Assembly: GCA_964441955.1 (NCBI GenBank)
Contig: CAYTWA010000002.1
Location: forward strand, 9,894 to 73,893
Direction: 5' to 3'
DNA length: 64,000 bases
DNA from: an uncultured Elusimicrobia bacterium
Lineage (GTDB): Bacteria > Elusimicrobiota > Elusimicrobia > 2-01-FULL-59-12
Under the pieces are notes generated by a model, which made no database searches, was not told where the DNA came from, and saw nothing but the letters and a program-made list of their open reading frames with translations. Numbering within the stretch: position 1 is the stretch's first letter; every line of letters begins with the position of its first letter. This document shows, in pieces, positions 6,001-22,189 of this stretch. Both the position numbers and the translations under genes were made by a program.

Positions 6001-9000
6001 AGCGTGCGCGAGCCGAAGCAGCGCTTCAAGCCCGACTAAGCCAGATCCAAGATCAGTTGGCGCGCCAGCAGACGCTCGCGCAGGAGATGACGCTCCAAAT
6101 AGCCGCCTCTGAGAAAGAGCGCGAAAGTTTGGAAAAAGCGTCGCGCCAAAACGGGTCCAATTGGAAAGCGCAGCAGGCCGCTATTCAGACGCAACTGGAC
6201 GCCTACCGCGAACAGATTCGGGGGCTTGAAACGGAGCTTGCGGCCCGCCAAACAGATTTAAAGGATGTCCATGCGTCCTTAGCCGCCGCGCAAGCGGACC
6301 GGCAAGCGTTAATCGAGTCGCTCCAAACGCACAAGCAAGGGTTTAGTCTCGAGCGAAGCGCTCTCGAATCGCTCATGGAAAAGACCGTCACCGATTCTAC
6401 TCACGCCATGGACGTCTTACGTGCAAGGCTGGTAGAGGCGGAGAAGCAGGTGGCCGTTCACCTGAATGCGCTAGATGACCAGCGCTCACGCGTCGTGCAG
6501 TTGGAAGCGCGGCTTAAGGAATCTGAACAACGCCGTGTCTCTATAGAACAATTGGGAGCGACCCAGTTGGCCGAAGCCGAAAAATGCCGCCGCGATCTTG
6601 AAACGCGACTGAGCGCGGAACGCGACCGCGCCGGCCTCATGGAGACGAAACACGCAACTCAAGTGTCGGAGTTGAAAGAATTGCACAACGCGCTCGCCTC
6701 CGCGCGCCAGGAGCGCGAAACGCTTCTTGAAACATTGTCGGCTCAGCGTGAAAAAGCGACTGCCGACTTGATGGCTCAGCAAAAAATGCTTCAGACTGCG
6801 GAGTCCGAAGCGCGTCGGCAGACGCAGGCCCTTGAAAAAGAATGGCGGGATCGTTTAGCGGCGGCCTCCGCTCAATCCACGGATCGGATTACGGCGCTTC
6901 AAGCGCAGGTCACGCAACTTGAGCAAACATTGACCCAAGAGAGACACCAGGTCGAAAAACGGCTTGCGGCTCTGGTGGAGGAACGATATCAAGCCGAAGC
7001 AGCCCTCCAGGACCGCTTAACGGCCTTAAGCGAAAATTTAGCGCGTCAGCAAACGATGGCTCAAGAAATGGCGCTTAAACTAGCGGCCTCCGAGAAGGAG
7101 CGAGAAAGTCAGGAAAAAGCCGCCCGCATGGCGGGGTCCGATTGGAAAACACAACAAACCGCATTCCAAACGCAATTGGAAGGTCAACGCGACCACGTTC
7201 GGCAATTGGAAAAACAGCTGACGTCGCGTGAACACGATTTAAAAGAAGTTCAAGCCGCGTTGTCGGCGGTTCAAAAAGACCGTCAAATTCTAACGGAAAA
7301 GCTCGAATCGCAAAGACAAGGATTTGAGCTAGAACGGGCGGCCTTGGAAGTGAAGTTGGCGGAAGGACAAAAAGCCGCCAGCCAAGCCATCGCCAAACTC
7401 GAATCGCAGTGGCGCCAAAGGCTCGATACGGCCGCGGAGGAATCCACCCAAACGGTGGAAGCGCTGCGCCAACGAATCGTGGAAATTGAGCAGAAATGGG
7501 GCGAGCGGAATGCGGCGCTGGAAAAAGATTGGCGCGAGCGCTTAAGCGCCTCGGGCGTCCAATACACCGAACGCCTTGCCGGTCTTCGCTCGCAAATGGC
7601 TTCCTTAGAGGCGGCGCACCGAGACCAAACAGCCTCCTTAGAACAGGCGCTGGCAGCTCAGAAAGCCGATTTTGAAAAACGCATCACCGTTTTCCAGCAA
7701 GAGCGCACTAAAGAAGAATCGATTCTTCGGGAGCGTTTAATGTCGCTGCAAGACAAGGCCGGCCATAAAGAGGCGGACTTGTCCGCGCTGGCGAAGGATC
7801 TCGAAGGAGAGCTTGCAGCCGCCCGCCAGGAACGGGATGCATTGGCCAGTGAGCTTACGCTTCAGAGGGAAGAATCCGTCAAAGCCCTTCGTGCGGCCGA
7901 GGGCACCGCCAAAACTCTCGAAAGCCAGTGGCGCTCTCGTTTGGACGCCTTGGACAAATCGGCTCAAGAACGGGTCGCGCGCGTCACGACCGAAGCGGCT
8001 GAACGGCTGGAGGCCTTTGAAGCGCGCGTGGAAGAATTAGAAAAGCGTCTTGCCTCCGAGCGCAGTGATTTTCAAAAACGTTTAGAAGCCCAAACCGCTC
8101 AAGCCGAACGTGTCCAAGCCCCCCTGCAGCAGCGGTTGATCGAATTGGAGCGCGCCGTGGCCGAGCGCTCGGGCTCTCTTAAGGCCGTCCAAGAAAAGCT
8201 GTCGCGCTTAGAAGAGGCCAAGGCGCGCCTTGAAAAGACCGCGGCGACCGACGCCGCTCAGGCCGCCCGGACCTACCGGCAGATGGAAGAGCGTTTGGCC
8301 GCCGAAGGCGGTCGTGCGGAAGCGTTGGTCGGCCAGATTCAGGCGCATCAGCTGCAAATCAAGGAATTAGACGCCGTTTTATCCGCGGTGCGTGAAGAGC
8401 GTCAAGCCTTAAGTGAATCGCTCGAAGCGCAGCGCCAGAAATTTATGGCTGATATGAAGGACCAAGGGCAATCCCTCAGCCAGCGTGAGCGCATGGTCGC
8501 TCAGCAAATCCATGAATTGGAGAAGGAATACACTCAGCGCTTGAGCCAGCAGGAAAAAGATTTCAAATCGCAAAGCGAAGCGCTTCATGAACGGGCCCGT
8601 GCGCTGGAAGCGGACTTGGCCCGCCGGGAATCGGCCGCGCAAGCGATCGAAAAACAATTGCGCCGGGAATACGAAGCGCGCCTCCATGAAGAACGGGAAA
8701 AAGCGCGCAAACTTCAGACCGACTTGGCCGCGCTTAGTTCTTCCGTGAGCGACTTGGAAAGCCGCTGTGCCACTCTTCAGGGCCAGAAGGAAACCAACGA
8801 CGACCATTTCGAGCAGGAACGATTTCGATTTGCCGATCAAATAAAAGGTCTCGAAACGCGCCTTAAGGAACAAAAAGCGGAATCCAAACGGACAGTAGAG
8901 GCGTTGGAACTTGAACTTCGTTCCCAATCCGCGGGTGTTTCAAAGGAATCGGTCGACCGTCTGGAAAATGTCCAGCGCCGGGTGCGCGAGTTGGAGCAGC

Positions 9001-10028
9001 TTATGGACCGAAAGGATACTGAAATCGGCGTGCTTCGGGAACAAATGGACCATTTAGAAAAAGCCTCGGCTCATCGTGAGAAGGAAATGGTTCGTACTCA
9101 TGCGAAGGAATTAGAAGAAATGCAAAGCCGCTTCCTAGGCAAGATGAAAGAGATCCGCGCGGAGTCCGAGGAAGCCTTACGCCGCGTGCAAAATGAGTAT
9201 TTATCGCAAGAGTCTGTGGCAAGCCCGGATTTGCGTGGAATGGAAGAACGCCGAGTTTTAGAAGCAAAGCTTCGGGAGGCTCAAGCGGAACTGGAACAAG
9301 CGAAAGTCCGCGAGCCCGCACGCCTAGCGGATGCCGGAGTGTCCAAATCCTTGATGGAAGAATGGGTGTTTGGTTTTGCCCATCAAGTCCGCAACCCCCT
9401 AGGCATTATCCGAAGTGTTGCCGAATCGTTGAAATGCCAGGTGGCGCTCAGCCGCGGTGGTGGTGAGGCCATCGACGCCATTTTGAAGGCGGTCGATGGG
9501 TTAAATGGACGCCTTAAAGAATTTATCGAATTCTCCAAACCGGTTAAACCCTTCTGCCAAGCCTTGGATGTACGAACCACGGTGGAAAAAGCCTCTTCCG
9601 GGCTGCGCGAGCGAATGAAGCGGCAGCGGGTGGACTTCAAAATGGACATTCCACACAATTGTCCGACTCTGCCTTTGGACCCCGATCACATGCAAACGAT
9701 TTTGGTCAATTTGATGAGCAATGCCTTGGATGCCATGCCCGATGGCGGTAAACTGCGCGTGGAAGCGCGTTACGCGCCCTCAGGCGGAAAGCTGGAGCTG
9801 CGCGTTCAAGACACAGGCCGGGGAATTCCCAAAGAACATATGAAGGAAGTGGGTCGTCCGTTTTTCTCCACGAAACCGGGTGCCGTCGGTTTGGGGCTTG
9901 CTCTCGTCAAACGCCTGCTTCGCGCTTATCACGGCGACGTGGTGGTCGAAAGCAAACCTAACCAAGGCACGACGGTCCTATGCCGGCTCCAGGTTCTTGA
10001 TAAAGGAGAAACCGCATGGGCCGCGTAA
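1..10028 (+). CDS. Giant coiled-coil sensor histidine kinase (5' partial; >3,340 aa). About 3,100 aa of heptad-rich, SMC/myosin-tail-like coiled coil followed by HisKA (H-box FAHQVRNPL) and HATPase_c (N-box LVNLMSNALDA, G1 DTGRGIP, G2 GLGLALV)
   Basis: ORF 102..10028 continues in frame without a stop to base 3 (translated by hand upstream of the first ATG), so it is 5'-truncated. The C-terminal ~230 aa show canonical histidine-kinase motifs. The rest is E/Q/R/K/L/A-rich repeats with no TM segment. Confidence 0.85.
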   Translation, partial: GALQSVHSLQDLNARLKGEIQDYLHREKALNERMIRLQQELNDSYSRLDQHTSIDRDREAAAREALRQEIILEQNAKWQTEIDALRQSVQNWNEVRRQKETELRMIKEALLQKEAEVFALQKEKISSEEKAHRDLVEAISKARSGVQMAIDEVVRSKDHDIQNLKNELAQGPIELDRRLQQIEQDYRRKEQNLLHQFRERQQALELDWTQREKELWEQVSRSRQTLEAELKKQWENRTQELERSFDQRRSFLENQTQQKEHLMDQRLSARENELLSVWAAKESALVQDWARKEKALAEQFQKALDEERQSAMAEIARVKKESETWRAAQEETWHSREIEFKKAQSETEDMLRDSFRHREEDLLAKHQDALGKSQKQISDLLARASEKDTQARVAMEKLAMVVKERDALSERLESTTRDSQQRLMMVEQQLKTRERELQQLTQRLASEVEVREAHIQNLTRKNTAQESDVKVLQEKIERAEIDRDASQKKAVELETDFMARRQSLEQAYQTEMSSLRERLTVLSQTTSQKEQTYQRRVAELETDLLERVSQAQTLSDQLSVARTDFQELLQTSTTRDDRLASIERELANALEEVRSLTHHLKRQEEVRDELQSKNEALQGQLREETQRFEERLAHAGHEADMMRGRLEQRVVELEGLFRQKSTDAQTLQIRLNEAMQAFKTLESVSSERQTELSARLQALEQASNAEKEAFDVQLQGLRQKDLALQQSLEARIRELETDIARRAAVQADLQGQVQSLQETRQDISERSAAREAQLLDEVHDLKNKIQVQKEQLTSRVLGLERERHQTEEALHAKALELEQRLGQKSTTLKTVQDELSKAHETTEQLGKRLTTVEAHLQRAEGQLKAKETELHALINASHKQAAETQETYQRRLLDLQNQKLKLETDLKGVQDLLARTESARVAIEKDAALLETQRLSQVQKLEERLVAQERAHEERFAHADQAAQTMRGQLEKRILDVEGQLRQKMTDLQTLESRLKEAVDERKSFETASDTRKTQLSKEVDELKEKVKFQKEQLASRVMGLERERHQIEDALQAKILELEQSGSQKTTAIKTLQEQLTKARERSEQMEKRLSTVEAHLQRAEGQLKAKETELHSLISSSHKELNESQETYQRRILELQNNKLKLETDLKSLQESLARADGLRASLEKEAAQRERTWRAAEGEWKGAAEAKQKEAGLQQTALTKRIDELENQVRQKTVELQTFEARLSVAEDQRTAFEKDVQAGRSQIVAMQKQILDLKTGLQERESELKENHQSLLSLQKERQTLLDSLEAERKGVALERQAWEFTAAQTDQARQKENAAFEDRLLALQQERAQVERTLQKQVTDLQETLTLRVADLEDAKQQLQTTLQERLAFDKAVGVRTSEALQRHDELEKRYFAERDKAQLAETTLAAQVSELQSLQAELSAIREERQTLISQLASERQKSQTDLRAAANDHVERAEALQKRIQNLEINLGAERSQFEQRMAAVQKDRAEKEETLHRRLLELQDVASGRAAEIQGLKQRLHEAEQARFSLEKTTGEQLGKAQQSQTDLEKRFFAERGRAEQAESQLAAQLSEIKELKEAVASARQDRETLLKTLSEQREKAMSDLSALQKAAQTSEQEARRQMHVLEKEWRDRLNAAAAQSAERVATLQSQVTVLEKAQVAEKADFEKRLALFVEERARAEEALQTRLISLQEGLARQQTLATELTQKLDASEKTRDILEKLSRQTGEEWKADRQALAQQLNAQREQIVRLEKQLSAREENVQDIQQALAQAQKDRQALTESLQHAKVSFDLERTGLESHFERSSETLRFKFMEAQKQTAAQALMLEEQRARLMQLEERLKDSEQRRSMMEKAGTLQSTEAENRRLDLETHLRAERERSGHMETRLTAQVSELKELKEALAAARQERESVLVTLASQRDKASQDLADQQKALQTSEADSRRQIQALEKEWKERLSAASTHASERIDALQAQVAQLEQTLSRERHDYEVRLAGLVDERARAEAALQARLSQIQDQLARQQTLAQEMTLQIAASEKERESLEKASRQNGSNWKAQQAAIQTQLDAYREQIRGLETELAARQTDLKDVHASLAAAQADRQALIESLQTHKQGFSLERSALESLMEKTVTDSTHAMDVLRARLVEAEKQVAVHLNALDDQRSRVVQLEARLKESEQRRVSIEQLGATQLAEAEKCRRDLETRLSAERDRAGLMETKHATQVSELKELHNALASARQERETLLETLSAQREKATADLMAQQKMLQTAESEARRQTQALEKEWRDRLAAASAQSTDRITALQAQVTQLEQTLTQERHQVEKRLAALVEERYQAEAALQDRLTALSENLARQQTMAQEMALKLAASEKERESQEKAARMAGSDWKTQQTAFQTQLEGQRDHVRQLEKQLTSREHDLKEVQAALSAVQKDRQILTEKLESQRQGFELERAALEVKLAEGQKAASQAIAKLESQWRQRLDTAAEESTQTVEALRQRIVEIEQKWGERNAALEKDWRERLSASGVQYTERLAGLRSQMASLEAAHRDQTASLEQALAAQKADFEKRITVFQQERTKEESILRERLMSLQDKAGHKEADLSALAKDLEGELAAARQERDALASELTLQREESVKALRAAEGTAKTLESQWRSRLDALDKSAQERVARVTTEAAERLEAFEARVEELEKRLASERSDFQKRLEAQTAQAERVQAPLQQRLIELERAVAERSGSLKAVQEKLSRLEEAKARLEKTAATDAAQAARTYRQMEERLAAEGGRAEALVGQIQAHQLQIKELDAVLSAVREERQALSESLEAQRQKFMADMKDQGQSLSQRERMVAQQIHELEKEYTQRLSQQEKDFKSQSEALHERARALEADLARRESAAQAIEKQLRREYEARLHEEREKARKLQTDLAALSSSVSDLESRCATLQGQKETNDDHFEQERFRFADQIKGLETRLKEQKAESKRTVEALELELRSQSAGVSKESVDRLENVQRRVRELEQLMDRKDTEIGVLREQMDHLEKASAHREKEMVRTHAKELEEMQSRFLGKMKEIRAESEEALRRVQNEYLSQESVASPDLRGMEERRVLEAKLREAQAELEQAKVREPARLADAGVSKSLMEEWVFGFAHQVRNPLGIIRSVAESLKCQVALSRGGGEAIDAILKAVDGLNGRLKEFIEFSKPVKPFCQALDVRTTVEKASSGLRERMKRQRVDFKMDIPHNCPTLPLDPDHMQTILVNLMSNALDAMPDGGKLRVEARYAPSGGKLELRVQDTGRGIPKEHMKEVGRPFFSTKPGAVGLGLALVKRLLRAYHGDVVVESKPNQGTTVLCRLQVLDKGETAWAA
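1880..3500 (+). repeat. Second intragenic repeat pair (~410-nt conserved block QKEQL.SRV.GLERERHQ.E.AL.AK.LELEQ...TVEAHLQRAEGQLKAKETELH..I..SHK...E.QETYQRR.L.LQN.KLKLETDLK) at ~2350-2760 and ~3080-3490. A weaker ERF..HA..MRG.LE match lies at ~1880 and ~2860.
   Basis: Near-identical peptide blocks read in the translation of the giant ORF. Confidence 0.55.
4640..7380 (+). repeat. Three tandem intragenic repeats of ~960-980 nt (~325 aa). Conserved blocks LTAQVSELKELKEAL...ASQRDKAS.DL..QQK.LQTSE...RRQ.QALEKEW..RL.AAS...ER..ALQAQV.QLEQTL..ER
   Basis: Protein-level self-similarity read directly from the translation. Copies start near nt 4670, 5630 and 6610, with ~60-70% aa identity. Confidence 0.7.
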
Positions 10029-11182
10029 TGGTGGTGGACGATGAGGCCGACATGCGCATGGCGCTGCGACTCTTTCTTCAAAATAGCGGCCACGAAGTCG
10101 AAGAAGCGGAAAACGGCGAAGCCGCTTTGGCGAACCTTTCAAACGGTGCTTCTTACGATTTAGTTCTCATGGACATGCGCATGCCCGGGATGGACGGGCT
10201 CCAAACGCTGACGAAGCTGCGCGAAACGAAAAAAGATTTACCGGTGATCATGGTGACCGGCTACGGCAGCGTTGACCAAACAGCCGAAGTGCTCGAAAAA
10301 GGCGCCAACGGCTACATCACCAAGCCTTTCCAACACCAGGAATTGCAGGATGCCATGAGCCGAGTGGGCCTGGTATCGCAAGGAAGCGATGAAGCGAGTA
10401 AGCGTGTCAGCACAGACGGGACTAACTCGCCTAATCGCTCACTTGCTCACTCGCGCCGTTGGATAACGCTTGGCTCCGTCGCTCTTGCGATCATTGGTTT
10501 TAGCTGGCAGCGCGGATGGCTGACCAATGACGATTTTAAGCTGGCCTATTCCAACCCCGTCGACATGACCTGGAATGCAGGAAAACTCTGGGTGGGGGAT
10601 TGGTTTACACAATCCATTTATATTCACGACATCGCCAAATCGGGCGCACCCATTGTTAAAACCTATTATTTGCCCGATGTGCATGTGACTGGCGTGGCGG
10701 TGGCGGGGGATCGCCTCTACACCTCGGACTCCTGGGATAAGAAAATCCGCCGGCATAAAATGGACGAATACTTAACGATTGAGGCTGTCCTTCCCGCCCC
10801 GGGTCAAAATCCGACGAGCCTCTTTTTTGATGGGAAATATCTGTGGTCGATGGACTCGAAGGCCGCCCGAATTTATCAGCATCGCCTGGATGAAAAACTG
10901 ACTGTTGTGGCCGATTATAAAGCCCCGGGATCGGCGCCGGTCGGGTTTTTCAAAGATGAAAAGTTTGCCTGGGTGTCCGACAGTCAAACCCGCCGGCTTT
11001 ATAAGCTGCGTCTGGATGACCAATTAACGACACTCGAGTCCTATACGATTTCCGATCTGGAAGCTCGCCGCGAACCCCTGTCTTGTTTCCGCTGGATTAA
11101 CGGCAACCTTTGGTTTGCCCGCGACCGGCTCGGAACAATGTTCAAGCGAACCCCTCGCAGCCTAAAGCTAGCCGCGAAGTAA
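10016..11182 (+). CDS. Response regulator with N-terminal REC domain (D-D-...-K motifs: VVDDEADM, LVLMDMRMPGMDG, ITKPF), one predicted TM helix (WITLGSVALAIIGFSW) and a C-terminal ~230-aa domain of four to five ~42-aa repeats (..SDSWDKKIRRHKMD / ..MDSKAARIYQHRLD / ..SDSQTRRLYKLRLD) resembling beta-propeller blades
   Basis: Start ATG overlaps the stop of the giant kinase by 13 nt (translational coupling). The CheY-like receiver motifs are clear. The repeat periodicity was read from the sequence. Confidence 0.8.
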   Translation: MGRVMVVDDEADMRMALRLFLQNSGHEVEEAENGEAALANLSNGASYDLVLMDMRMPGMDGLQTLTKLRETKKDLPVIMVTGYGSVDQTAEVLEKGANGYITKPFQHQELQDAMSRVGLVSQGSDEASKRVSTDGTNSPNRSLAHSRRWITLGSVALAIIGFSWQRGWLTNDDFKLAYSNPVDMTWNAGKLWVGDWFTQSIYIHDIAKSGAPIVKTYYLPDVHVTGVAVAGDRLYTSDSWDKKIRRHKMDEYLTIEAVLPAPGQNPTSLFFDGKYLWSMDSKAARIYQHRLDEKLTVVADYKAPGSAPVGFFKDEKFAWVSDSQTRRLYKLRLDDQLTTLESYTISDLEARREPLSCFRWINGNLWFARDRLGTMFKRTPRSLKLAAK

Positions 11183-11267
11183 AGGCAAGACCCTTGCGTC
11201 ACTATTCCCATAAATACACACCCAAATAGCCCAGTGATTTACCGTTAGAGATGGAATAAACTATCGC

Positions 11268-14200
11268 ATGCGCGCTGTTTGCAATATAGGAATTATTTTT
11301 TGCTTGTTTGTTCAAGCCATCGATGGCGCACCTGGCGACTTCCGGTCGCCGGTCCGGCGTGATCCAACGGCTCTCCCCGCTTGGACCGTTCAAGCTCTGG
11401 CCTTAGAAAGCATCGCGGGCTTTTTTGGGCGTCTATTACCCCGAACGCCGCGTTACGTCCTATTAAAAGGACTTAGGCCAAACCCAGACCTGTTGCCCGT
11501 CATCGAAGGCCCGGGTCGCTTACACCCCGAGGCGCTAACAAAAGCGTTTGAAGAATATGCGAGGAATGTAGAGGAGGTCGGGTCGGACGCTTCGAATGCG
11601 TTTCCTCAAACCGCGTCCGCGCCGTCGAGCGCATTTTACGGGGTCATGCATTTCTTGAATAATCCACAACCCTTCAAAGACGAACAAGCCCGCTTTTTAG
11701 CGGCGCTTCACACGATCATCCAAGCCGACATGGGTGGCCATCCAAATTTCGACGGCATTTGGAAGGACGTAAAGTCTCATCTTATCGCGGTGCCCCCGGA
11801 AGGCTTGCACGTGACGCTGGCCGCACTGGCTAACGGGAAGAGCGATTTTCGCTCCATGAAATACTGGGTTTACCGTTACCAAATTGGGCAGTGGCTAAAT
11901 CGCCTGGGACCCTTTTTCCCGGAAAGCCATTGGCATTATGCCGGGGATATAAAGTTTTTTGATGCCTCCATCCCAGCTGTAGCCGCTGTCTTACGCCCGA
12001 ATTCGCCCGAGGATTTATTTACATTTCGTTCATTGGGAACAGCTATCGCTGGAAAATTATCACTCCGGTCCCATCTTGTCCATGTGACTCTATATTATGT
12101 GGACTATTCTTTACCCACGCCGAGCCATGCGAAGGAGTGGAGTGAGCAGCAGTTAAGACTTTGGATCAACGCGGCGGTTTTGAAATGCTCTGGCGACACA
12201 GTTAGCCCTGCCGCATTGGCCATCGATTCCATCACGCCAACAGCCTCCACAGCCCTAAATCAACTTCATCCTGACAAGCCAATCAAACTGAAAGATCGTC
12301 AAACCTTCGAAGATGCCGTTGCTAAAGGGAAAGCCGCCCTCGCTCGCGCGCTCATGCCTGGCGATTACCCGCAGGCGCTAGTGGCCGTGCTGGGGCTTTT
12401 TTACCAATACCATTTAAGCGACTTAAACGCCTTATTTATCGCCGTGGCGGAGGGGAAAATACCCATTTGGCGTATCGAACGACTTTTGTCAAGCCGTAAA
12501 ATGCTCGGTGTTGAGCTCCGGGAATGGAAGCCGTTGACAGGCACGGCGACAGCGAAAATTCGGGTGCGTCACGACCACCCGGGGCTATCGCTGGCCATTT
12601 CGCATACGATAGACCAGTCTCACGGTGTCGTGTCCCGTATGGGTAACGGAAAACAATTTGAAATTGTAATCGATCAAATTCAGGACGAGAATGAACTTCG
12701 GCAGCTAATGGCAGCGTTGAGCCAAATCCCGGACGTCGGCGTCCGGTTTTTCTGGCAATGGCCGATCTTGCACCGGATCCGAAATGCTCTCCATGGGACG
12801 ACAAGCGTTCGATTGACTGCGCTGCTCCCCACCCACCAAAAAGAAGCAGGGCAAATGAGTCAAAAAACTCGGTTATTACAGGCTCTGCTGGCGTTGGATC
12901 CAAATGCCAATTTAACGCATTTAGAGGTGGAGCGTCGCCCGCCTCTGGGGACTCAGCTTGAAATGAGCATCGATATTCGATCAGCCGTTGCGCCCTTTCT
13001 CGAAGAAACCTTGAACCGGGCTCTTGGCATCAAGGCGGTCCAATCCGTGCAAACGAATCACGATCGGCGCGGCCTGTCATCTCAATTGTCAGATTGGATC
13101 TGGTCCGATGGCTATGCGCTAATTCTTTTTAGCAGTTTGGCTTTGGCATTGCTGAGCAGCTTATGGGTTTTCGCCGCGTTTGGCCCAGACGGGATATTCG
13201 CGTATGGGAGTTTGTTGTTAAGCCCAATTTTGGCGCACCTCTACGTTTATGCGAATTTGCTGCAGCTAAAAATTTATCCTTCGGACAATTTGTCTCCTGG
13301 CCGCCTGGAAGATGCCCGGTTACCAGCCGTATGGCGGCAATGGGGATGGTCCGATCATGCCGCCTTATCCGTATCTTTCTTTTGTCTTCCATGGGTGGGT
13401 TACCTCGTAGCCGCCATTCCTTTTTTTCTCCACTTTCCAACCTGGCCCGGCGCCGCGATGGCGGTTGGACTACTAAGTTCTCTGGCTTTTCCTTTATGGA
13501 TTGGAGACTCGCTCCATCGAAGCGCCGTTTGGGCCATGTATTATGAAAAAGATCAAATCTTGGGGCGACTTAAGCGGTCAAGCCCGATTCGTGTCGGCGA
13601 CTTGTTGATCTTGGACGCCTCCCATCCCCTTAAACCCTCCGTCGTAGTGCTCCTGCCGCTCGATGGAGTACGCGTGCAGGACGATGACTCAAACAAGTTT
13701 TACGAGATCCGGGTTTGCTTTATGCCGAACAACTTCGTCCCATGGGAGCTTAAAGTTTACGAGGGTAAGAAGTGTATTCAAAGAATTGATTTGGAATTGG
13801 ATTACGAAAAGGAGCAGCTCTTGGTTCGGGGTTGGTTTAAGCTCGAAGACGATAAGGATTTCTCCAGCATGATTTTAAAAGTCCTTCATGAAAAAATGCC
13901 GGAGGGTTTTCGACTTTCGGGACCTTGGGAATACAGGCGAAAGGGCGCTTCCAACCCATCATCATCGTCATGGTTGGAGTCCTGGTGGCGTGCTCGTCCA
14001 TGGATGGGTCCCGAAGGGCTTATTTTTATCGACGAAAGTGCGCGGTTGGTACGAATAGACCATTCAAGAGATTTGACCGAGGAAGATATTTGCCGGATCG
14101 AAACCACCTTCTTCAGAGGGTACTTTCAAGAGGTGGGCGACGAGGCACCGCGATCCGTTAAACTATTGACGAGCTTGTGGTTGCGGCTTGGGCTGGTGGA

Positions 14201-14774
14201 CGAAGTGTCTTTGACGGATTACTTATTTAGTCTCGCCTCAACAAAACCCTCGAACGCAAATAAAGACACGTTTATCCGATTTATGAACGGCCAACACTTC
14301 ATCACGGGATTCAGACAAGGAAAACGCGACGTCGATCCCGCCACATTGACGTCGGACCCATCGTTGTTAAAAGAATTGGCCGCCCTCCAACCGGTCCAAC
14401 GTTATTGGCTCAGAACGCTCCTCGAGCGCGACGGTGTTGACCCGCGTGTAGCCGTTGGTTGGTTAACGCCGTCCATTTTTTTACATATGAATGAGCACAT
14501 TGAAATTATTCAGAAGGATGGTCGTTACCTTTTGAGATTATTGGGATTTATTTCGGGGGACGAGGGGAAATTCGCTCAAGCACTCTATGCGGGACATATC
14601 GAAGACAAGCCTCTCAACCTAAGAAAAGTGTCCGAGCGAAGGCGCTTCTTTCAACGTGTGAAACCAGATCAAATATCCACAGAAGCCCTTGCTTTATGGG
14701 CCGACGTCCTTCGTTGGATAAACCAATACGGATTTAAACCCGTTTCCTACTGGAAAACGACCACGGCCGCCTAA
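11268..14774 (+). CDS. Orphan 1,168-aa protein with a possible N-terminal signal/anchor (IGIIFCLFVQAI), a central cluster of 4-5 TM helices (aa ~610-760) and a ~400-aa C-terminal soluble region. The gene is markedly lower in GC (~45%) than its flanks.
   Basis: Long uninterrupted ORF. The GC drop is visible by eye (e.g. 12000-12120, 13700-13900). I recognise no domain signatures. Confidence 0.6.
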   Translation: MRAVCNIGIIFCLFVQAIDGAPGDFRSPVRRDPTALPAWTVQALALESIAGFFGRLLPRTPRYVLLKGLRPNPDLLPVIEGPGRLHPEALTKAFEEYARNVEEVGSDASNAFPQTASAPSSAFYGVMHFLNNPQPFKDEQARFLAALHTIIQADMGGHPNFDGIWKDVKSHLIAVPPEGLHVTLAALANGKSDFRSMKYWVYRYQIGQWLNRLGPFFPESHWHYAGDIKFFDASIPAVAAVLRPNSPEDLFTFRSLGTAIAGKLSLRSHLVHVTLYYVDYSLPTPSHAKEWSEQQLRLWINAAVLKCSGDTVSPAALAIDSITPTASTALNQLHPDKPIKLKDRQTFEDAVAKGKAALARALMPGDYPQALVAVLGLFYQYHLSDLNALFIAVAEGKIPIWRIERLLSSRKMLGVELREWKPLTGTATAKIRVRHDHPGLSLAISHTIDQSHGVVSRMGNGKQFEIVIDQIQDENELRQLMAALSQIPDVGVRFFWQWPILHRIRNALHGTTSVRLTALLPTHQKEAGQMSQKTRLLQALLALDPNANLTHLEVERRPPLGTQLEMSIDIRSAVAPFLEETLNRALGIKAVQSVQTNHDRRGLSSQLSDWIWSDGYALILFSSLALALLSSLWVFAAFGPDGIFAYGSLLLSPILAHLYVYANLLQLKIYPSDNLSPGRLEDARLPAVWRQWGWSDHAALSVSFFCLPWVGYLVAAIPFFLHFPTWPGAAMAVGLLSSLAFPLWIGDSLHRSAVWAMYYEKDQILGRLKRSSPIRVGDLLILDASHPLKPSVVVLLPLDGVRVQDDDSNKFYEIRVCFMPNNFVPWELKVYEGKKCIQRIDLELDYEKEQLLVRGWFKLEDDKDFSSMILKVLHEKMPEGFRLSGPWEYRRKGASNPSSSSWLESWWRARPWMGPEGLIFIDESARLVRIDHSRDLTEEDICRIETTFFRGYFQEVGDEAPRSVKLLTSLWLRLGLVDEVSLTDYLFSLASTKPSNANKDTFIRFMNGQHFITGFRQGKRDVDPATLTSDPSLLKELAALQPVQRYWLRTLLERDGVDPRVAVGWLTPSIFLHMNEHIEIIQKDGRYLLRLLGFISGDEGKFAQALYAGHIEDKPLNLRKVSERRRFFQRVKPDQISTEALALWADVLRWINQYGFKPVSYWKTTTAA

Positions 14775-14849
14775 GCCGTCTTCACTCCATGCGAGAGATT
14801 CGCGGATGACGACAAGGCGTTTAAGTAAGTTTTGTCTAACAGGCAGAAC

Positions 14850-15641
14850 TTAGGAAGGATTCGAAATTTCGGCGTCGGATAACGACGGGAAGGTGAGGGT
14901 GACGGTGGTTCCTATTTTGGGGATGCTTTGGAACTGGGTTTGCGCGTGGTGCTGTTCGATGATGCGTGCGGCGAAGAAAAGCCCGAGGCCCACCCCGCCT
15001 GGTTTTGTGGTTTTAAAAAGGGTTTTCCCGGGCTTTGGGAGTTTAAGGCCCGGCCCGGTATCCCTAATGAGAATTTGGACGGACCCCTTATTCGTCACCT
15101 GCGTCGACAACGTCAGTGTTCCGCCGGGAGTCATGGCCTCGATGGCGTTGACCGCGTAATTAAGGACCGCCTGTTCTAAGAGCTCCGCTTGAAAGAAAAC
15201 GTCCGGGAGTTTGGCTTCTTGGTGTTTTTCAAAGTGCAGACCTTTACGTTTGCAAAGTTCCTCCGCGTAGTCGGCCGCCGCGTTGACCACCGGGTTGATG
15301 GATCCGCAGTTCATCGGCGGTTGTTCCCCTTTGGCATAAAGCAGTAAATGGCTGACGATGCGCGAAAGCTTTCCGGCGCTTCGTTCAATCAAATCCAACG
15401 GCTGACGCTGCTCCGGGAGCAGTCCTTTTTGCCCCCGCAGTAATTCGGTGGTCGTTTGAATGGTTTGAAGCGGGGAGCGGAATTGGTGAACGAAGCCAGC
15501 CACCATCCGCCCGAGTGTCTTCCATTTTTCAACTTCAAGAGCAGCGGCAGAGGGAGTGAGAGTCAAGGTAGATTTCTTTTTAAAAAAAATTCCTTGACAC
15601 CCTCTCCCTCTGCCCTTGCTCTTCACGGTGTGATTGCCCAT
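14850..15641 (-). CDS. Soluble, sensorless histidine kinase: HisKA (FVHQFRSPL) + HATPase_c (N-box AVNAIEAMTPGG, G1 IRDTGPGL, G2 GGVGLGLFFA). The N-terminus contains an in-frame palindromic element.
   Basis: Motifs are present in the translation. The start ATG at 15639-15641 overlaps the stop of the upstream cNMP-patatin gene by 1 nt. Confidence 0.8.
   Translation of the reverse strand: MGNHTVKSKGRGRGCQGIFFKKKSTLTLTPSAAALEVEKWKTLGRMVAGFVHQFRSPLQTIQTTTELLRGQKGLLPEQRQPLDLIERSAGKLSRIVSHLLLYAKGEQPPMNCGSINPVVNAAADYAEELCKRKGLHFEKHQEAKLPDVFFQAELLEQAVLNYAVNAIEAMTPGGTLTLSTQVTNKGSVQILIRDTGPGLKLPKPGKTLFKTTKPGGVGLGLFFAARIIEQHHAQTQFQSIPKIGTTVTLTFPSLSDAEISNPS
15547..15613. repeat. Palindromic element copy A: arms GCAGAGGGAGTGAGAGTCAAGG / CCTTGACACCCTCTCCCTCTGC, core TTTCTTTTTAAAAAAAA. 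Lies in-frame within the 5' end of the small HK gene on the - strand (encodes KSKGRGRGCQGIFFKKKSTLTLTPSAAA).
   Basis: 22-bp imperfect inverted repeat. No stop codons in the HK frame. Confidence 0.75.
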
Positions 15642-17641
15642 TAGTACGCCCGCAGCGAGATGCCCAGCGGTACTTTGCAGTGGTCCGAAAAAAACGGCAG
15701 CAGGCTCTTGATTTTAGGCAGCGCTTCTTCCGCGGCGACGATGCCGGACTTTAAAATGTCATCCGAGCGGTGAAACTCCGTCCAGTTGTAGTCGCGTAAA
15801 TCCGGGGCAATTACGATGTGGGCAATTTCGACGCGCGCCTGGGCGATTTCGTATTGCATGGTGTAGAGCATCTTGAAAAACACTTCGGCCATATTCGGCG
15901 CCTCGGGTACGAGCGGCAGTATTTTCCGGCGCCCGGGAATTTTGCGAAGGGATGGCTTGGCCGTGAGATTGACTGAAATCAAAATGTCTGCGCCCATGTT
16001 GGACACAATGGAGGTAGGAACCGGGTTGACGAGCCCGCCATCCACCAAATAACGATCCCCGTATTTAAAGGGTTGGAAAAGAATCGGCAAGGATGTCGAC
16101 GCGCGCACGGCGTCGGCCACGCGGCCTTCGCGTAAAACCACCTCCTGTCCCGTGCGAATGTCGGTCGCTACGGTGGCAAAGGGGATGCGGAGTTGGTCGA
16201 ATTCAACGGTGCCTAAAACGCTGCGCAAAAATCCCGAAAGCGTCTGGCCGGCCATAAACCCCGAGTGGGGAAATGTGAGATCCCCAAACATGTTTTTTAA
16301 AAGCCATTTTTTCGTAATGCTGCGTGAGATGTCTTCAATTTTTGAGGGGGAATGGCCGGCGCAAAAAAAAGATCCTAGGAGTGCGCCCATGGACGTCCCG
16401 GCAACCACATCGATGGGAATGCCTTCCCGTTCAAAAATTTTGAGAATCCCCACGAGCGTATAACCAAACGCGGCCCCCGACCCCATGGCCAGGCCGACTC
16501 GCAGTTTGCCGAGTGCGCGCGCCACGCGTTCCAAGGCTTCAATGGCGGAGCCGCCCTGGTCGTGGGTTAAGTAGGGGGTCCCGGTGGCACGAAAAGGCTG
16601 ATGAAACGCTTCGCTCCAGGGGACGCGAAAATTGGCTTTAAAAGCGTTGCGGGACGAGGGATGGTGCAGATAAACCGTCGTAAACGGCACGGTTTCGTTA
16701 TCGGCCAACATACGCAGACGAGGCAAAGAAGTGTCCGCCAGCTCAATGGCTTGGTCCCATACGATGCCTAACGCCCGGTCGGATTCGCGCATCAAGATTG
16801 GAATCAAATCGTCTTCTTCCGTGGGGCTAACCAAGAGGGCAAAATCGTAATGGTCCTTAAGCAAACCCAAGAGCGAGGGAACAACGCCCAGCAAATGCTC
16901 TTTGACCAATTTGGGGTGAAGCGACAGCACTTCAAGTCCGCTGGGATGAACGGTGATCACCTGCCTAAGCGCGTGGATGTCGAGGAAATCTTGCTCACGA
17001 AGCATCGCATCCATCGACATCGGAGGGTTTAAGCCCAACGAGCGCGCCATATCCCCGCTGCGTGCGGTCAAGTCGACCAAAATCACTTTGCGGCGCGTTT
17101 GCTCGACGAGGGCCATCGCCAAATTGACGGTGGACAGAATCAGCGCCTCGTGCGGAAGTGCGGGAAACACCATGATGCGCTGCGGTTCTTTCGGTTTGTC
17201 GTGCGGCGGATGAAAGGATACCGCCAGGCGTTTGGACAGGGCGCGCGAAAGGTGAATGCCCACCAGCGGATGCGCTTCCAAAATTTGATCGAACTCGGAT
17301 TTTCCCAACGTCAATAGTTCGCAGGCGGTATCGGCCACCGCGCTAAAAGGATAGGGCTCTCCCGTTAAAAGCGAAAGTTCTCCCACGGCATCGCCTCGCC
17401 CTAAATACGCCACGGTGTTTTCTCCTTCCTTGCCAAACTGCGACGTGATACGGATGCGTCCAGACTTGATTAGAAAGAGCGCTTGGCCGGGGTCTCCTTC
17501 GCGCAAGATGGTGGCGCTGCGGTCGATTGTCAAGGACTGAAGCTTGCCGACGAGTTCCATGAGCACATCGTCCCCTAGAGGACTAAAGAGGGGGTTGCGT
17601 TTTAGAAAATACAATCCATCGCTGCGGTTCTGGCTATCCAC
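15641..17641 (-). CDS. Cyclic-nucleotide-binding domain (..GELSLLTGEPYPFSAVA) fused to a patatin-like phospholipase (GTSMG nucleophile elbow, DGG catalytic Asp motif YLVDGGLVNPVP). Bacterial NTE-like lipase.
   Basis: cNMP-binding and patatin GxSxG/DGG signatures read in the translation. Confidence 0.85.
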   Translation of the reverse strand: MDSQNRSDGLYFLKRNPLFSPLGDDVLMELVGKLQSLTIDRSATILREGDPGQALFLIKSGRIRITSQFGKEGENTVAYLGRGDAVGELSLLTGEPYPFSAVADTACELLTLGKSEFDQILEAHPLVGIHLSRALSKRLAVSFHPPHDKPKEPQRIMVFPALPHEALILSTVNLAMALVEQTRRKVILVDLTARSGDMARSLGLNPPMSMDAMLREQDFLDIHALRQVITVHPSGLEVLSLHPKLVKEHLLGVVPSLLGLLKDHYDFALLVSPTEEDDLIPILMRESDRALGIVWDQAIELADTSLPRLRMLADNETVPFTTVYLHHPSSRNAFKANFRVPWSEAFHQPFRATGTPYLTHDQGGSAIEALERVARALGKLRVGLAMGSGAAFGYTLVGILKIFEREGIPIDVVAGTSMGALLGSFFCAGHSPSKIEDISRSITKKWLLKNMFGDLTFPHSGFMAGQTLSGFLRSVLGTVEFDQLRIPFATVATDIRTGQEVVLREGRVADAVRASTSLPILFQPFKYGDRYLVDGGLVNPVPTSIVSNMGADILISVNLTAKPSLRKIPGRRKILPLVPEAPNMAEVFFKMLYTMQYEIAQARVEIAHIVIAPDLRDYNWTEFHRSDDILKSGIVAAEEALPKIKSLLPFFSDHCKVPLGISLRAY

Positions 17642-17666
17642 GGGGGGCCTCGCTATAATCCGCCGG

Positions 17667-18965
17667 ATGAAATTTCAATCGATCCGCGGCACCAAAGACA
17701 TGCTGCCCGCCTTTGCCTTGGGGGCTGCGGCCGGCGGTCCCTCCGACGCCGAGGCCGCTCAGCGATTGGAAAGCGGCGCGCGCGAAGTCTTTCGCCGTTT
17801 TGGTTTTCATGAAATTCGCACACCCACGTTTGAAGCTCTCGAATTGTTCCAGCGCTCGCTGGGCGAAACCACCGATGTCGTGCAAAAAGAAATGTATGCG
17901 TTTGAGGACCGCGGGGGCCGAAAACTAGCCCTGCGACCTGAAGGTACGGCGGGAGTCGTACGCGCTTTCATCGAGCATCATTTATCTCAAACGGCTCCAT
18001 TTTGCAAGCTGTTTTACATAGGCGCTATGTTTCGAGCCGAGCGCCCGCAAGCGGGTCGCTACCGAGAGTTTTGGCAGGTGGGGGCGGAAGCTTTCGGCAA
18101 CGCCGCCCCGGCAGCTGACGCCGAAATGCTCTTGATGCTGCAATCGCTGTTTGAGGCCTTGGGGCTTCAAAACATAGTTTTAAAAATCAACAGTTTGGGC
18201 GACAGTGCCTGTCGGCCGCAGTACCTTGAGGCGCTCAAGATCTATCTGCAAAGCAAAGCCTCCAGTCTCTGTGACGATTGTCAGCGCCGTATCGATAAAA
18301 ACCCGTTGCGCGCGTTAGACTGCAAAGTCGATGGGCAGAAGCTGCTCGACGCCCCTTTGATCGACCACTTCTGGTGTGAGCCGTGCCGCGCGCACTTCGA
18401 CCGAGTTAAAACCTATTTGGATGAGTCGAGGGGGCGCTATGAGGTGGTCCCTCGTCTGGTGCGGGGTCTTGATTATTATTCGCGGACCGTTTTTGAAGTC
18501 ACGTCTTCCGATTTGGGGGCTCAAGACGCTTTAGCGGCGGGGGGGCGTTACGATAAGCTCGTCAAAAATCTGGGTGGTCCGGATGTGCCGGCGATTGGTT
18601 TTGCGATGGGGTTGGAACGGGCGCTTGAAGCGATTAAAAAGTCAGGATCGGTGTCGGGACCAGAACCAAGGCACAAGGTGTTTGTCTGGGTGGCTGCGAT
18701 GGGTGAACGTCCGTCGGCCAAAGCGTTTGGGGTGCTGCAAGCGTTGCGCCGCGAGGGGGTTTCCGCCGATGGGGGATTCTTTGAAAAAAAGCTTGGGGCG
18801 CAGCTTCAAATCGCCGATAAAATCGGCGCGACCCACTGCGTCATTATCGGGGACGATGAAGTCAGTAAAGATGCCGCTACCGTTCGCTCCCTTAAAACCA
18901 GCACTCAAGAAAGTGTGGATTTTTCAAAGCTTTCAGGATATTTCCAGACCCTGTTGAATGCTTAA
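17667..18965 (+). CDS. hisS: Histidyl-tRNA synthetase
   Basis: Class II aaRS HisRS motifs (MKFQSIRGTKDMLP..., ...LRPEGTAGVVRAF..., GGGRYD). The start was moved to the ATG at 17667, because the track ORF from 17544 is an N-terminal over-extension. Confidence 0.9.
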   Translation: MKFQSIRGTKDMLPAFALGAAAGGPSDAEAAQRLESGAREVFRRFGFHEIRTPTFEALELFQRSLGETTDVVQKEMYAFEDRGGRKLALRPEGTAGVVRAFIEHHLSQTAPFCKLFYIGAMFRAERPQAGRYREFWQVGAEAFGNAAPAADAEMLLMLQSLFEALGLQNIVLKINSLGDSACRPQYLEALKIYLQSKASSLCDDCQRRIDKNPLRALDCKVDGQKLLDAPLIDHFWCEPCRAHFDRVKTYLDESRGRYEVVPRLVRGLDYYSRTVFEVTSSDLGAQDALAAGGRYDKLVKNLGGPDVPAIGFAMGLERALEAIKKSGSVSGPEPRHKVFVWVAAMGERPSAKAFGVLQALRREGVSADGGFFEKKLGAQLQIADKIGATHCVIIGDDEVSKDAATVRSLKTSTQESVDFSKLSGYFQTLLNA

Positions 18966-21732: not shown

Positions 21733-21807
21733 GGGCCCTTCGTTCAATGGATAGGACGCCGCCCTGCGAAGGCGGCAATGGCAGTTCGACTCTGCCAGGG
21801 CCCACCA
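21733..21807 (+). tRNA. tRNA, 75 nt with encoded CCA. Cloverleaf folds cleanly (acceptor GGGCCCU/AGGGCCC, T-arm GGCAG-UUCGACU-CUGCC). The anticodon loop CUGCGAA gives anticodon GCG (Arg, decoding CGC/CGU).
   Basis: Hand-folded from the sequence. All four stems pair (D-stem GUUC/GGAC, anticodon stem CCGCC/GGCGG), with U33 and A37 present. Confidence 0.7.
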
Positions 21808-21822
21808 CTTTCTCGTCGATTT

Positions 21823-22189
21823 GGGGCTGAATAGGATCGACAGGGTTGGACAGAATGGACGGTCGCAAGCCGTGGTTGGTCGGACCCACGCTAAAAATCG
21901 GCTAAATCATAACTGGCGAACCTCTCGCCCTCGCTGCCTAAACCGTAGCGAGTCCGGGCCTTTGGCCCGGCGTTCTCCCCGACCTCACCGGTGGGCGGGT
22001 CAAGAGCGTCATCATGCCGGTTAGGACGTCCGAGCGCGCCTTCGTGCGGACGTGCGAACCGCTTCAAGGCTCGTCCTTATGAAAGGGGTCTGCAGCTGAA
22101 ATAAGGACTAAAACCAATAGCAGACTACGCTTGTAGTGACGCTGTTCGGCTAACTTTGGACCCGGGTGCAATTCCCGGCAGCTCCACCA
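21823..22189 (+). ncRNA. ssrA: tmRNA (SsrA), ~367 nt. 5' GGGGCUGAAUAGGAUCGACAGGG..., 3' ...GGACCCGGGUGCAAUUCCCGGCAGCUCCACCA. The internal tag reading frame ends ...GEPLALAA-UAA.
   Basis: Conserved tmRNA 5' and 3' tRNA-like ends with encoded CCA, and a tag ORF ending in the canonical ALAA stop. Confidence 0.85.

Follow-up and report, generated by a model that had tools for sequence, protein, structure and literature searches.

A protein of 1168 residues encoded in an Elusimicrobiota genome is, in the reading that we modestly favour, a membrane-tethered, ACT-regulated predicted 2H phosphodiesterase, lineage-specific, in which a rare N-terminal module is joined to a unique C-terminal half. This apparent orphan is thus an orphan in one half only, and from the other half follows a concrete biochemical hypothesis that can be tested; neither a new mobile element nor a toxin is revealed.

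The gene was analysed within a stretch of 64,000 nucleotides, hereafter the window, and coordinates are collected in Table 1. A preliminary description had placed it between a response regulator and a convergent kinase gene, and the domains found there agree (REC in the former, HisKA and HATPase in the latter). The genes of the giant kinase and the response regulator overlap by 13 nt, and both are candidate operon partners of the target gene, possibly co-transcribed with it. The small-kinase gene lies directly downstream of a gene for a cNMP-binding patatin, both on the minus strand.

Table 1. Position of the target gene, of the segments of its product and of the neighbouring genes in the window.
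Feature	Position	Strand	Remarks
Giant coiled-coil histidine kinase, 3308 aa	102..10028	+	upstream, same strand as target
Response regulator, 388 aa	10016..11182	+	REC, one TM helix, propeller-like domain; directly upstream of target
Spacer, response-regulator gene to target gene	11183..11267	+	85 bp, GC 43.5%
Target ORF	11268..14774	+	1168 aa, complete, stop codon included, uninterrupted
Hydrophobic N-terminal helix (aa 3-20) and leader, aa 1-120	11268..11627	+	hydropathy peak 1.84
Predicted 2H phosphoesterase domain (LigT/ThpR-like), aa ~121-340	11628..12287	+	HVTL at aa 181-184 and 272-275
Helical linker like the RelA/SpoT AH segment (LGLFYQYHLSDLNALFIAVAEGKIPIWRI), aa ~341-413	12288..12506	+	model helices 344-408
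Two ACT-like (beta-alpha-beta-beta-alpha) domains, aa ~414-590	12507..13037	+	model secondary structure, pLDDT 80-89
Four-helix TM block, aa ~591-770	13038..13577	+	hydropathy peaks 617, 642, 699, 728
Orphan C-terminal region, aa ~771-1168	13578..14771	+	beta-rich, then helical; lowest-GC segment of the gene, 49%
Small histidine kinase, HisKA and HATPase_c	14850..15641	-	convergent, downstream of target

Word-index homology searches with the protein or the family alignment returned no match, and the whole protein matched nothing in Pfam, NCBIfam, PADLOC, PHROGs or the PDB sequences. A reading as a defence-system or phage protein was dropped in the absence of any PADLOC or PHROGs match. It was an exhaustive search of 1.84 billion representative proteins that revealed the family. 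Seven distant relatives, P0002 to P0008, align with the target at 25-32% identity, over aa 136-590 only (E-values from 3e-4 to 5e-27). The GTDB genomes and JGI metagenomes, scanned with the target protein, gave no relative, and when the closer sub-alignment A6 was used instead, only the contigs of P0005, already known, came up. A full-length relative was found neither among the 1.84 billion representatives nor in the GTDB species genomes or JGI metagenomes, which fits a lineage-specific gene and the undescribed function suggested earlier. Judging from these searches, the N-module family is very rare, with about eight representatives in public sequence data, and undescribed.

All seven relatives are annotated as "hypothetical protein". 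They have the N-module in common with the target, namely the leader motif, the 2H-like domain, the helical linker and the two ACT-like domains, whereas their C-terminal extensions are unrelated to its TM block and C-terminal domain. Their genes are surrounded by housekeeping or glycan genes and the target gene by two-component genes, so that the neighbourhoods are unlike and give no consistent functional hint. A comparison of the relatives' contigs with the Elusimicrobiota loci likewise yielded nothing on their taxonomic position. Genes for HisRS, tRNA-Arg and tmRNA are found in the vicinity of the target, and some relatives lie near TyrRS and MnmA. A tRNA-related role was considered on account of this vicinity and rejected, the association being weak and inconsistent (it is absent at loci L089 and L090).

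By definition, members of the 2H superfamily carry a pair of H-x-T/S-x motifs in which x is hydrophobic (PMC5434554). Just two motifs of the form H-phi-[TS]-phi occur in the 1168 residues, where 0.6 would be expected by chance; both read HVTL, both fall at family-conserved columns, and the pair agrees with the definition. Among the 17 invariant columns of the family are T183, A185, H272 and L275, within the two HxTx motifs. The first histidine, H181, is kept in seven of the eight family members, P0008 being the one that lacks it. The two motifs are 91 residues apart in the target, against 82 in E. coli ThpR.

An AlphaFold model of the N-module, built on the family alignment, reached a pTM of 0.67 and a pLDDT of 66. 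With this model, Foldseek retrieved USB1, LigT, CPDase and YjcG from the PDB (probability 0.82-1.0, E-values 5e-3 to 0.18, target-normalised TM-score 0.44-0.54), and the 2'-5' RNA ligase superfamily, DUF1868 and Acb1 from BFVD. Most of the matches in these two independent libraries were 2H enzymes or ACT pairs. The bilobed alpha+beta fold of the superfamily is thus recognised with moderate confidence, in a predicted structure whose pLDDT falls below 50 over the stretch that carries the first HxT motif (aa 181-195). The same holds for the leader (pLDDT below 50 for aa 1-89), in which a motif alignment reveals a degenerate copy of the family motif, TVQALALESIAGFFGRLL, the relatives having QALAAEPAGGRY. 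Sequence profiles stayed below significance. Pfam LigT_PEase was hit by one of the eight members (E = 0.038), and hhalign against the E. coli ThpR family co-aligned both motifs (P = 0.03). Searches of PDB sequences gave no 2H match, whether the query was the entire protein, a profile of the N-module or one of the 2H segment, and no sequence-profile method (Pfam, PDB profile search, hhalign) placed the domain significantly in the 2H superfamily.

The known 2H enzymes (E. coli ThpR/LigT, B. subtilis YjcG, Deinococcus CPDase, human and yeast USB1 and phage Acb1) share with the target a distance of about 90 residues between two H-phi-T-phi motifs, which lie on predicted beta-strands. They are also the top structural matches to the predicted alpha+beta fold of the target in the PDB and BFVD. 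The domain of the target is larger (about 220 residues, versus about 170-190 in the known enzymes). To our knowledge, all characterised bacterial 2H phosphoesterases are small soluble enzymes. They consist of a single domain, whereas the 2H-like domain of the target is part of an 1168-aa multidomain membrane protein, in which the ACT domains come next, then the four TM helices and last the orphan domain. If the assignment is true, the membrane anchor and ACT sensors would represent a new regulatory architecture for 2H chemistry.

Downstream of the 2H-like domain, the linker and the ACT-like domains recall the C-terminal region (AH-RIS-ACT/RRM) of the RelA/SpoT (RSH) enzymes, in which a helical segment of pattern L..Y.L.....L..A.G.G.I likewise precedes an ACT-type domain. 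The Pfam matches are weak and recurrent in the family: RelA_AH_RIS in four of eight members (best E-value 0.029), ACT_4 in five (best 1.5e-5) and ACT in three, the ACT matches all staying below the 27-bit Pfam cut-off, with an E-value of 0.12 for the target itself. The family profile also gave weak matches in the PDB to RelA 526-562 and 673-738. In contrast to RSH enzymes, the target lacks (p)ppGpp synthetase, HD hydrolase, TGS and zinc-finger domains. It was therefore not taken for an RSH enzyme, as no RelA_SpoT, HD or TGS match was found in Pfam or NCBIfam, and the likeness is limited to the AH-ACT-like part. By Foldseek, the top matches of the model include the ACT pairs of IlvA (threonine deaminase) and aspartate kinase, made like that of the target of two consecutive beta-alpha-beta-beta-alpha units, but attached to a different catalytic domain. 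The preliminary description had seen no assignable motif in either soluble region. For the N-terminal half, the twin HxT motifs, the predicted 2H fold and the ACT-like domains speak otherwise.

The overall layout that had been described, a hydrophobic N-terminus, a central TM block and large soluble flanks, was recovered, with four hydrophobic helices (~614-636, 642-664, 698-720 and 728-750) where "4-5" had been claimed. Lysines and arginines number 2, 4 and 6 before TM1, in the TM2-3 loop and after TM4, and 0 and 0 in the two short loops. By the positive-inside rule, these counts place both large domains on the cytoplasmic side, which is most likely where they face. Residues 591-1168, that is the four TM helices and the following ~400 aa, matched nothing known. 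For the C-terminal region itself (aa ~771-1168), no relative other than itself was found among the 1.84 billion representatives, nor did BLAST and phmmer detect any similarity between the C-terminal half and the family members, the neighbour ORF at L004 or all frames of the window. An apparent MAFFT match of the target C-terminus to that of P0005 was discarded as not significant. A fold search had been proposed for both ends. The N-terminal model led to the 2H enzymes and ACT pairs; for aa 591-1168, AlphaFold run on the single sequence gave an unusable model (pLDDT 43.5).

2H phosphoesterases heal or trim 2',3'-cyclic ends of RNA, and phage Acb1 and the viral 2-5A phosphodiesterases are 2H enzymes that destroy 2'-5' and cyclic oligonucleotide signals. 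In the mechanism that we propose, H181 and H272 of the HVTL motifs would serve as general acid and base in the hydrolysis of a phosphodiester, either a 2',3'-cyclic phosphate or one related to it, carried by a nucleotide or an RNA end. A small ligand bound by the tandem ACT domains may tune this activity, the four TM helices would anchor the predicted enzyme at the inner membrane, and the C-terminal domain of ~400 aa could contribute an additional function. A bolder version, which we put forward as a long shot, sees the protein as a new type of membrane-integrated, ACT-gated 2H phosphodiesterase, through which the adjacent signalling cluster would exert its output or feedback. It would degrade either a nucleotide second messenger or a 2',3'-cyclic-phosphate signal on RNA; its C-terminal domain would couple this activity to a membrane process, and the N-terminal QALAAEPAGGRY motif shared by the family would be a sorting or docking signal not recognised before. 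The cluster invoked here comprises the 3308-aa kinase, the membrane-bound regulator, the cNMP-binding patatin and a CHASE2 cyclase.

Among the alternatives, one that we regard as possible, although rather unlikely, is that the 2H-like domain is non-hydrolytic, and that the protein is a membrane sensor or transducer. Ligand binding would then fall to the ACT domains, perhaps also to the 2H-like cleft, and the output to the C-terminal domain, working together with the giant kinase and the membrane-bound regulator. ACT domains are ligand sensors, the regulator is membrane-bound as well, and the target gene comes after those of the kinase and the regulator in the same orientation, behind an 85-bp spacer that has neither a promoter-like nor a terminator-like site on the + strand and whose RNA folding is not stable (z = 0.09). 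The histidine missing in P0008 moreover indicates that at least one relative can do without catalysis. However, both HxT motifs are intact in the target and in seven of the eight members, as expected for an active site, and the relatives do not adjoin two-component genes. Nor did Pfam and NCBIfam detect a kinase, receiver, HAMP, PAS or other signalling domain in the target: the HisKA/HATPase and receiver domains belong to its neighbours, and the target is thus not itself a two-component protein.

Whether the module works inside the cell has also to be considered, because the signal-peptide-like N-termini of P0002, P0004, P0005 and P0006 conflict with the cytoplasmic topology deduced for the target. 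Together with the hydrophobic N-terminus of the target, they would fit an exported module, whose substrate, periplasmic or extracellular, would be either 2',3'-cyclic nucleotides or a phosphodiester-linked glycoconjugate of the envelope. So would the position of relatives beside, or fused to, sugar-nucleotide or glycan genes (NTP_transferase, GH123, epimerase, Bac_transf with methyltransferase). We find export improbable: 2H, ACT and RelA-like domains are cytoplasmic as a rule, the positive-inside count of the TM block assigns the module to the cytoplasm, and P0008 has no signal peptide, its module being followed by a two-helix hairpin and then a cytoplasmic Bac_transf domain.

The membrane-tethered phosphodiesterase that we favour also differs from what the preliminary description had proposed, an island of one gene that was acquired recently and codes for a new protein, possibly an effector, toxin or receptor. 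To this we give little credence. That proposal started from a drop in GC to ~43-47%, against ~60% in the flanks and exactly bounded by the gene and its spacer. A dip does exist, and beyond chance. Among 604 sliding windows of 3.67 kb, the region 11183-14849 ranks second from the bottom, at most 0.2 points above the minimum and about 3 sd below the mean. Its size is only about 4 points, with 51.2% for the gene and 51.0% for the region, against 55.0% for the window, 55.5% for the left flank and 55.6% for the right flank. The lowest 500-bp value inside the gene is 47.6% (flanks 52-57%), so that only the spacer gets as low as had been stated. The dip is deepest across the last 1.3 kb, and its 5' edge is gradual rather than exact, the 3' part of the regulator gene being already at 51.8-52.4%; a sharp compositional break at both edges is therefore not seen. 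The target has the lowest GC3 (0.547, most genes being at ~0.59-0.70) and the lowest codon-usage index (0.66, versus ~0.75) of 34 genes, and its tetranucleotide correlation, 0.83 versus 0.905, is low by about 2 sd, but its dinucleotide signature is typical (delta* 57.9, window mean 59.0).

The locus was also compared with that of L008, the nearest relative genome compared. At the syntenic position the right-hand genes are kept and the target is missing, as it is from every species genome scanned. Nor does L008 have the giant kinase, the regulator or the small kinase at this locus, so that the difference is not a one-gene insertion, and L008 is distant from the host (HisRS 63-65% identical), so that the absence of the target there says little. 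No integrase, transposase or edge tRNA was found at the locus, its flanking repeats are short and at chance level, and no similarity to plasmids or phages was found for the target. Integration at the tmRNA gene was considered, and rejected since the target lies upstream of tmRNA and genes with synteny in L008 intervene; the tRNA-Arg and tmRNA are 7 kb away, past these genes. Mobility genes, flanking direct repeats and a border tRNA-tmRNA site are thus all lacking. The closest relatives, at 25-32% identity, mark no donor lineage, and nothing in Pfam, NCBIfam, PADLOC or PHROGs pointed to an effector or toxin. Recent transfer of the gene is not supported. Its modestly low GC3 and its poor fit in codon usage are most plausibly those of a fast-evolving, weakly expressed lineage-specific gene, and not of a recent foreign insertion.

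The ORF at 11268-14774 is a real gene. That it could be an artefact of annotation or assembly, or a pseudogene in decay, as the lack of relatives for half of the protein and the poorest codon fit in the window might suggest, is extremely improbable, because a stop-free frame of 1168 codons is impossible by chance, the N-terminal half aligns with a family having conserved motifs, and the exact 3' part was recovered from an independent read set, the Logan assembly L001 (SRR7369924), at 100% identity across 1140 bp that include the 3' junction with the small kinase. An identical protein, P0009, is present in NCBI on a 540-kb contig.

The target gene is real: its protein is identical to an NCBI protein (P0009) encoded on a 540-kb contig, and an independent Logan assembly, that of run SRR7369924, contains a 1140 bp exact match that includes the junction between the target and the small kinase. 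ORF and domain calls confirmed the gene order of the preliminary description, in which the target lies between a response regulator and a convergent kinase, and the layout proposed there (hydrophobic N-terminus, central transmembrane block, large soluble ends) agreed with the hydropathy profile. Hydrophobic stretches were found at aa 3-20 and as four transmembrane (TM) helices within aa 614-750. The giant kinase and regulator genes overlap by 13 nt. The spacer ahead of the target was searched for a terminator, a promoter-like site and a stable fold, and none was found; co-transcription of the target with the kinase and regulator genes is possible.

Features of the target locus and its surroundings
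Feature	Position	Strand	Remarks
Giant kinase	102-10028	+	3308 aa
REC-domain response regulator, upstream of target	10016-11182	+	domain match
Target ORF	11268-14774	+	1168 aa; 85-bp spacer in front
Small HisKA/HATPase kinase, downstream of target, convergent	14850-15641	-	domain match
Inverted repeat	15530-15630	- (transcript)	49-nt arms; -56.2 kcal/mol, z = -7.5
cNMP-binding patatin-like phospholipase (-) and CHASE2 adenylate/guanylate cyclase, on either side of HisRS	15641-20997		cyclic-nucleotide signalling genes
Overlap of longest HisRS ORF with 5' end of opposite-strand patatin ORF	17544-17641		~100 nt; HisRS ORF begins at TTG
tRNA-Arg(GCG), then tmRNA gene 16 nt on	21733-22189	+	short predicted tag peptide GEPLALAA

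The whole target gave no match in standard domain, structure-sequence, defence and phage libraries. An exhaustive HMMER search over 1.84 billion representative proteins yielded one fragment at 100% identity and seven distant relatives (25-32% identical, E 3e-4 to 5e-27), all of them metagenomic singletons annotated "hypothetical protein", which align to aa ~136-590 of the target only. Residues 591-1168 matched none of these representatives, none of the relatives and nothing else in the window.

In the alignment of this family (the target and its seven relatives), 17 columns are invariant, T183, A185, H272 and L275 among them, and H181 is kept in seven of the eight members. These residues make up two HVTL motifs, 91 residues apart; the target has no further H-phi-[TS]-phi motif, and chance would give 0.6 in all. 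Two H-x-T/S-x motifs are the defining feature of the 2H phosphoesterase superfamily (PMC5434554). An AlphaFold2 model of the N-module (aa ~120-590), built from the eight-sequence alignment (pTM 0.67, pLDDT 66), was compared by Foldseek with the PDB, and human and yeast USB1, E. coli LigT, Deinococcus CPDase and B. subtilis YjcG were retrieved; in BFVD, an independent library, the matches were "2'-5' RNA ligase superfamily" proteins, DUF1868 and Acb1. The sequence-profile evidence for 2H membership is weak: Pfam LigT_PEase matched one family member (E 0.038), a PDB search with the family profile retrieved no 2H enzyme, and hhalign against an alignment of relatives of E. coli ThpR (reference sequence checked against PDB 4QAK/5LDI) gave P = 0.03 only, with both motifs in register (H181/H43 and H272/H125).

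Pfam ACT_4 matches five of the eight members and ACT three (best E 1.5e-5), all of them below the Pfam cut-off, and RelA_AH_RIS matches four (best E 0.029); the family profile aligned weakly with RelA at residues 526-562 and 673-738. The model contains two beta-alpha-beta-beta-alpha units (pLDDT 80-89), and Foldseek also picked up the IlvA and aspartate kinase ACT pairs in the PDB. The predicted architecture runs from a hydrophobic N-terminus and a leader with a family motif through the 2H-like domain and RelA-AH-like helices to two ACT-like domains, four TM helices and an orphan domain. An unrelated ORF, also of 1168 aa, lies beside the relative P0003 (locus L004, 12758-16264, and likewise L005-L007) and shares with the family just the N-terminal motif 'TQALAAEPAGGRYPLILSVSARPRTLR', which there sits behind a signal-peptide-like segment and is 74% identical over 27 aa to that of P0002. 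A degenerate copy is present in the target and none in other ORFs of the window; the motif may serve in sorting or docking.

The best-supported reading, which we favour with moderate confidence, is that the target is a membrane-tethered, ACT-regulated 2H phosphodiesterase, as predicted from motifs and fold, with an unexplained C-terminal domain. The chemistry and the single domains are already known. No Pfam or NCBIfam model covers the combination of 2H, RelA-like helices, two ACT domains and membrane block, and a full-text literature search returned no paper naming both "2H phosphoesterase" and "ACT domain". Alternatively, the N-module could be non-catalytic and act as a sensor coupled to the adjoining kinase and regulator. 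We regard this as unlikely, since no two-component genes were found beside the relatives at the loci inspected. There, P0003 and P0005 are flanked by NTP_transferase/TyrRS and MnmA/cysteine desulfurase genes, P0006 lies just ahead of an epimerase gene, and P0008 is a fusion protein that also contains a sugar-phosphate transferase and a methyltransferase. These neighbours hint at a glycan link, too inconsistent to build on.

As to the side of the membrane on which the predicted phosphodiesterase would work, Lys+Arg counts in the target are 2 before TM1, 4 in the TM2-3 loop, 6 after TM4 and 0 in both short loops, and because of this concentration both large domains are predicted to face the cytoplasm. 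P0008 supports this placing: it has no signal peptide, and its module is followed by a hairpin of two helices and then by Bac_transf, a domain whose catalytic part is cytoplasmic. Signal-peptide-like N-termini in four relatives (P0002, P0004, P0005 and P0006) conflict with a cytoplasmic N-module and speak for an exported enzyme; given the charge pattern of the target and P0008, however, we consider export improbable.

The target had also been described as a low-GC island with flanks at 60%. The dip exists, the region ranking second-lowest among 604 sliding 3.67-kb windows, ~3 sd under the mean, but it is smaller than proposed: 51.2% for the gene versus 55.0% for the window and 55.5% and 55.6% for the flanks. 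Within the target no 500-bp window is under 47.6% (flanks 52-57%), and the spacer alone gets down to 43.5%. The 5' edge is not sharp, and GC is lowest in the final 1.3 kb. Among 34 genes the target is lowest in GC3 (0.547) and codon-usage index (0.66); its tetranucleotide correlation is ~2 sd low and its dinucleotide signature ordinary (delta* 57.9 versus a mean of 59.0). A fast-evolving lineage-specific gene, probably with weak expression, would explain this weak deviation no less well than transfer would.

A HisRS-anchored scan identified the complete MAG chromosome OY969767.1 (L008) as the best relative (HisRS 63-65% identical, versus 46-52% for Elusimicrobiaceae genomes), which puts the window in Elusimicrobiota. 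L008 retains the order cNMP-patatin(-), HisRS, CHASE2 cyclase, DUF3307 at 47-63% identity. At this locus the target is missing, as a recent gain would have it, but so are the regulator and small kinase, all three having been sought; the difference is therefore one of a multi-gene block rather than a one-gene insertion, and L008 is too distant for dating any gain or loss. The giant kinase has there a weak 28% coiled-coil match and nothing more: a 387-aa ORF beside the patatin gene (L008, 6306-7469), 28% identical to aa 4-265, a likeness perhaps caused by coiled-coil composition alone. Around the target, no meaningful flanking repeats and no plasmid or phage similarity were found, and the tRNA-Arg and tmRNA genes lie 7 kb away, on the far side of the syntenic genes. 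With a small GC shift, ordinary dinucleotides and no signs of mobility, a recently acquired effector or toxin, as first suggested, has little support and is improbable.

The giant kinase is unusually large for a cytoplasmic kinase and has no TM segment; coiled coil accounts for ~3000 residues (E 13.6%, Q 10.9%, R 10.0%, P 0.5%) and yields SMC-like profile matches, and the C-terminal HisKA/HATPase is the sole recognised part. The regulator has an odd layout, REC, one TM helix (aa ~149-164) and a C-terminal domain weakly matching SMP-30/gluconolactonase-like beta-propellers; domain searches returned no DNA-binding or enzymatic output domain. The inverted repeat, which may function as a terminator or attenuator or else be a repeat element, lies directly past the patatin stop and inside the 263-aa small-kinase ORF at its annotated 5' end, so that this kinase probably starts at Met46. 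Similarly, the Pfam match of HisRS begins only at residue 65 of its longest ORF, which suggests that the true start is probably downstream of the TTG.
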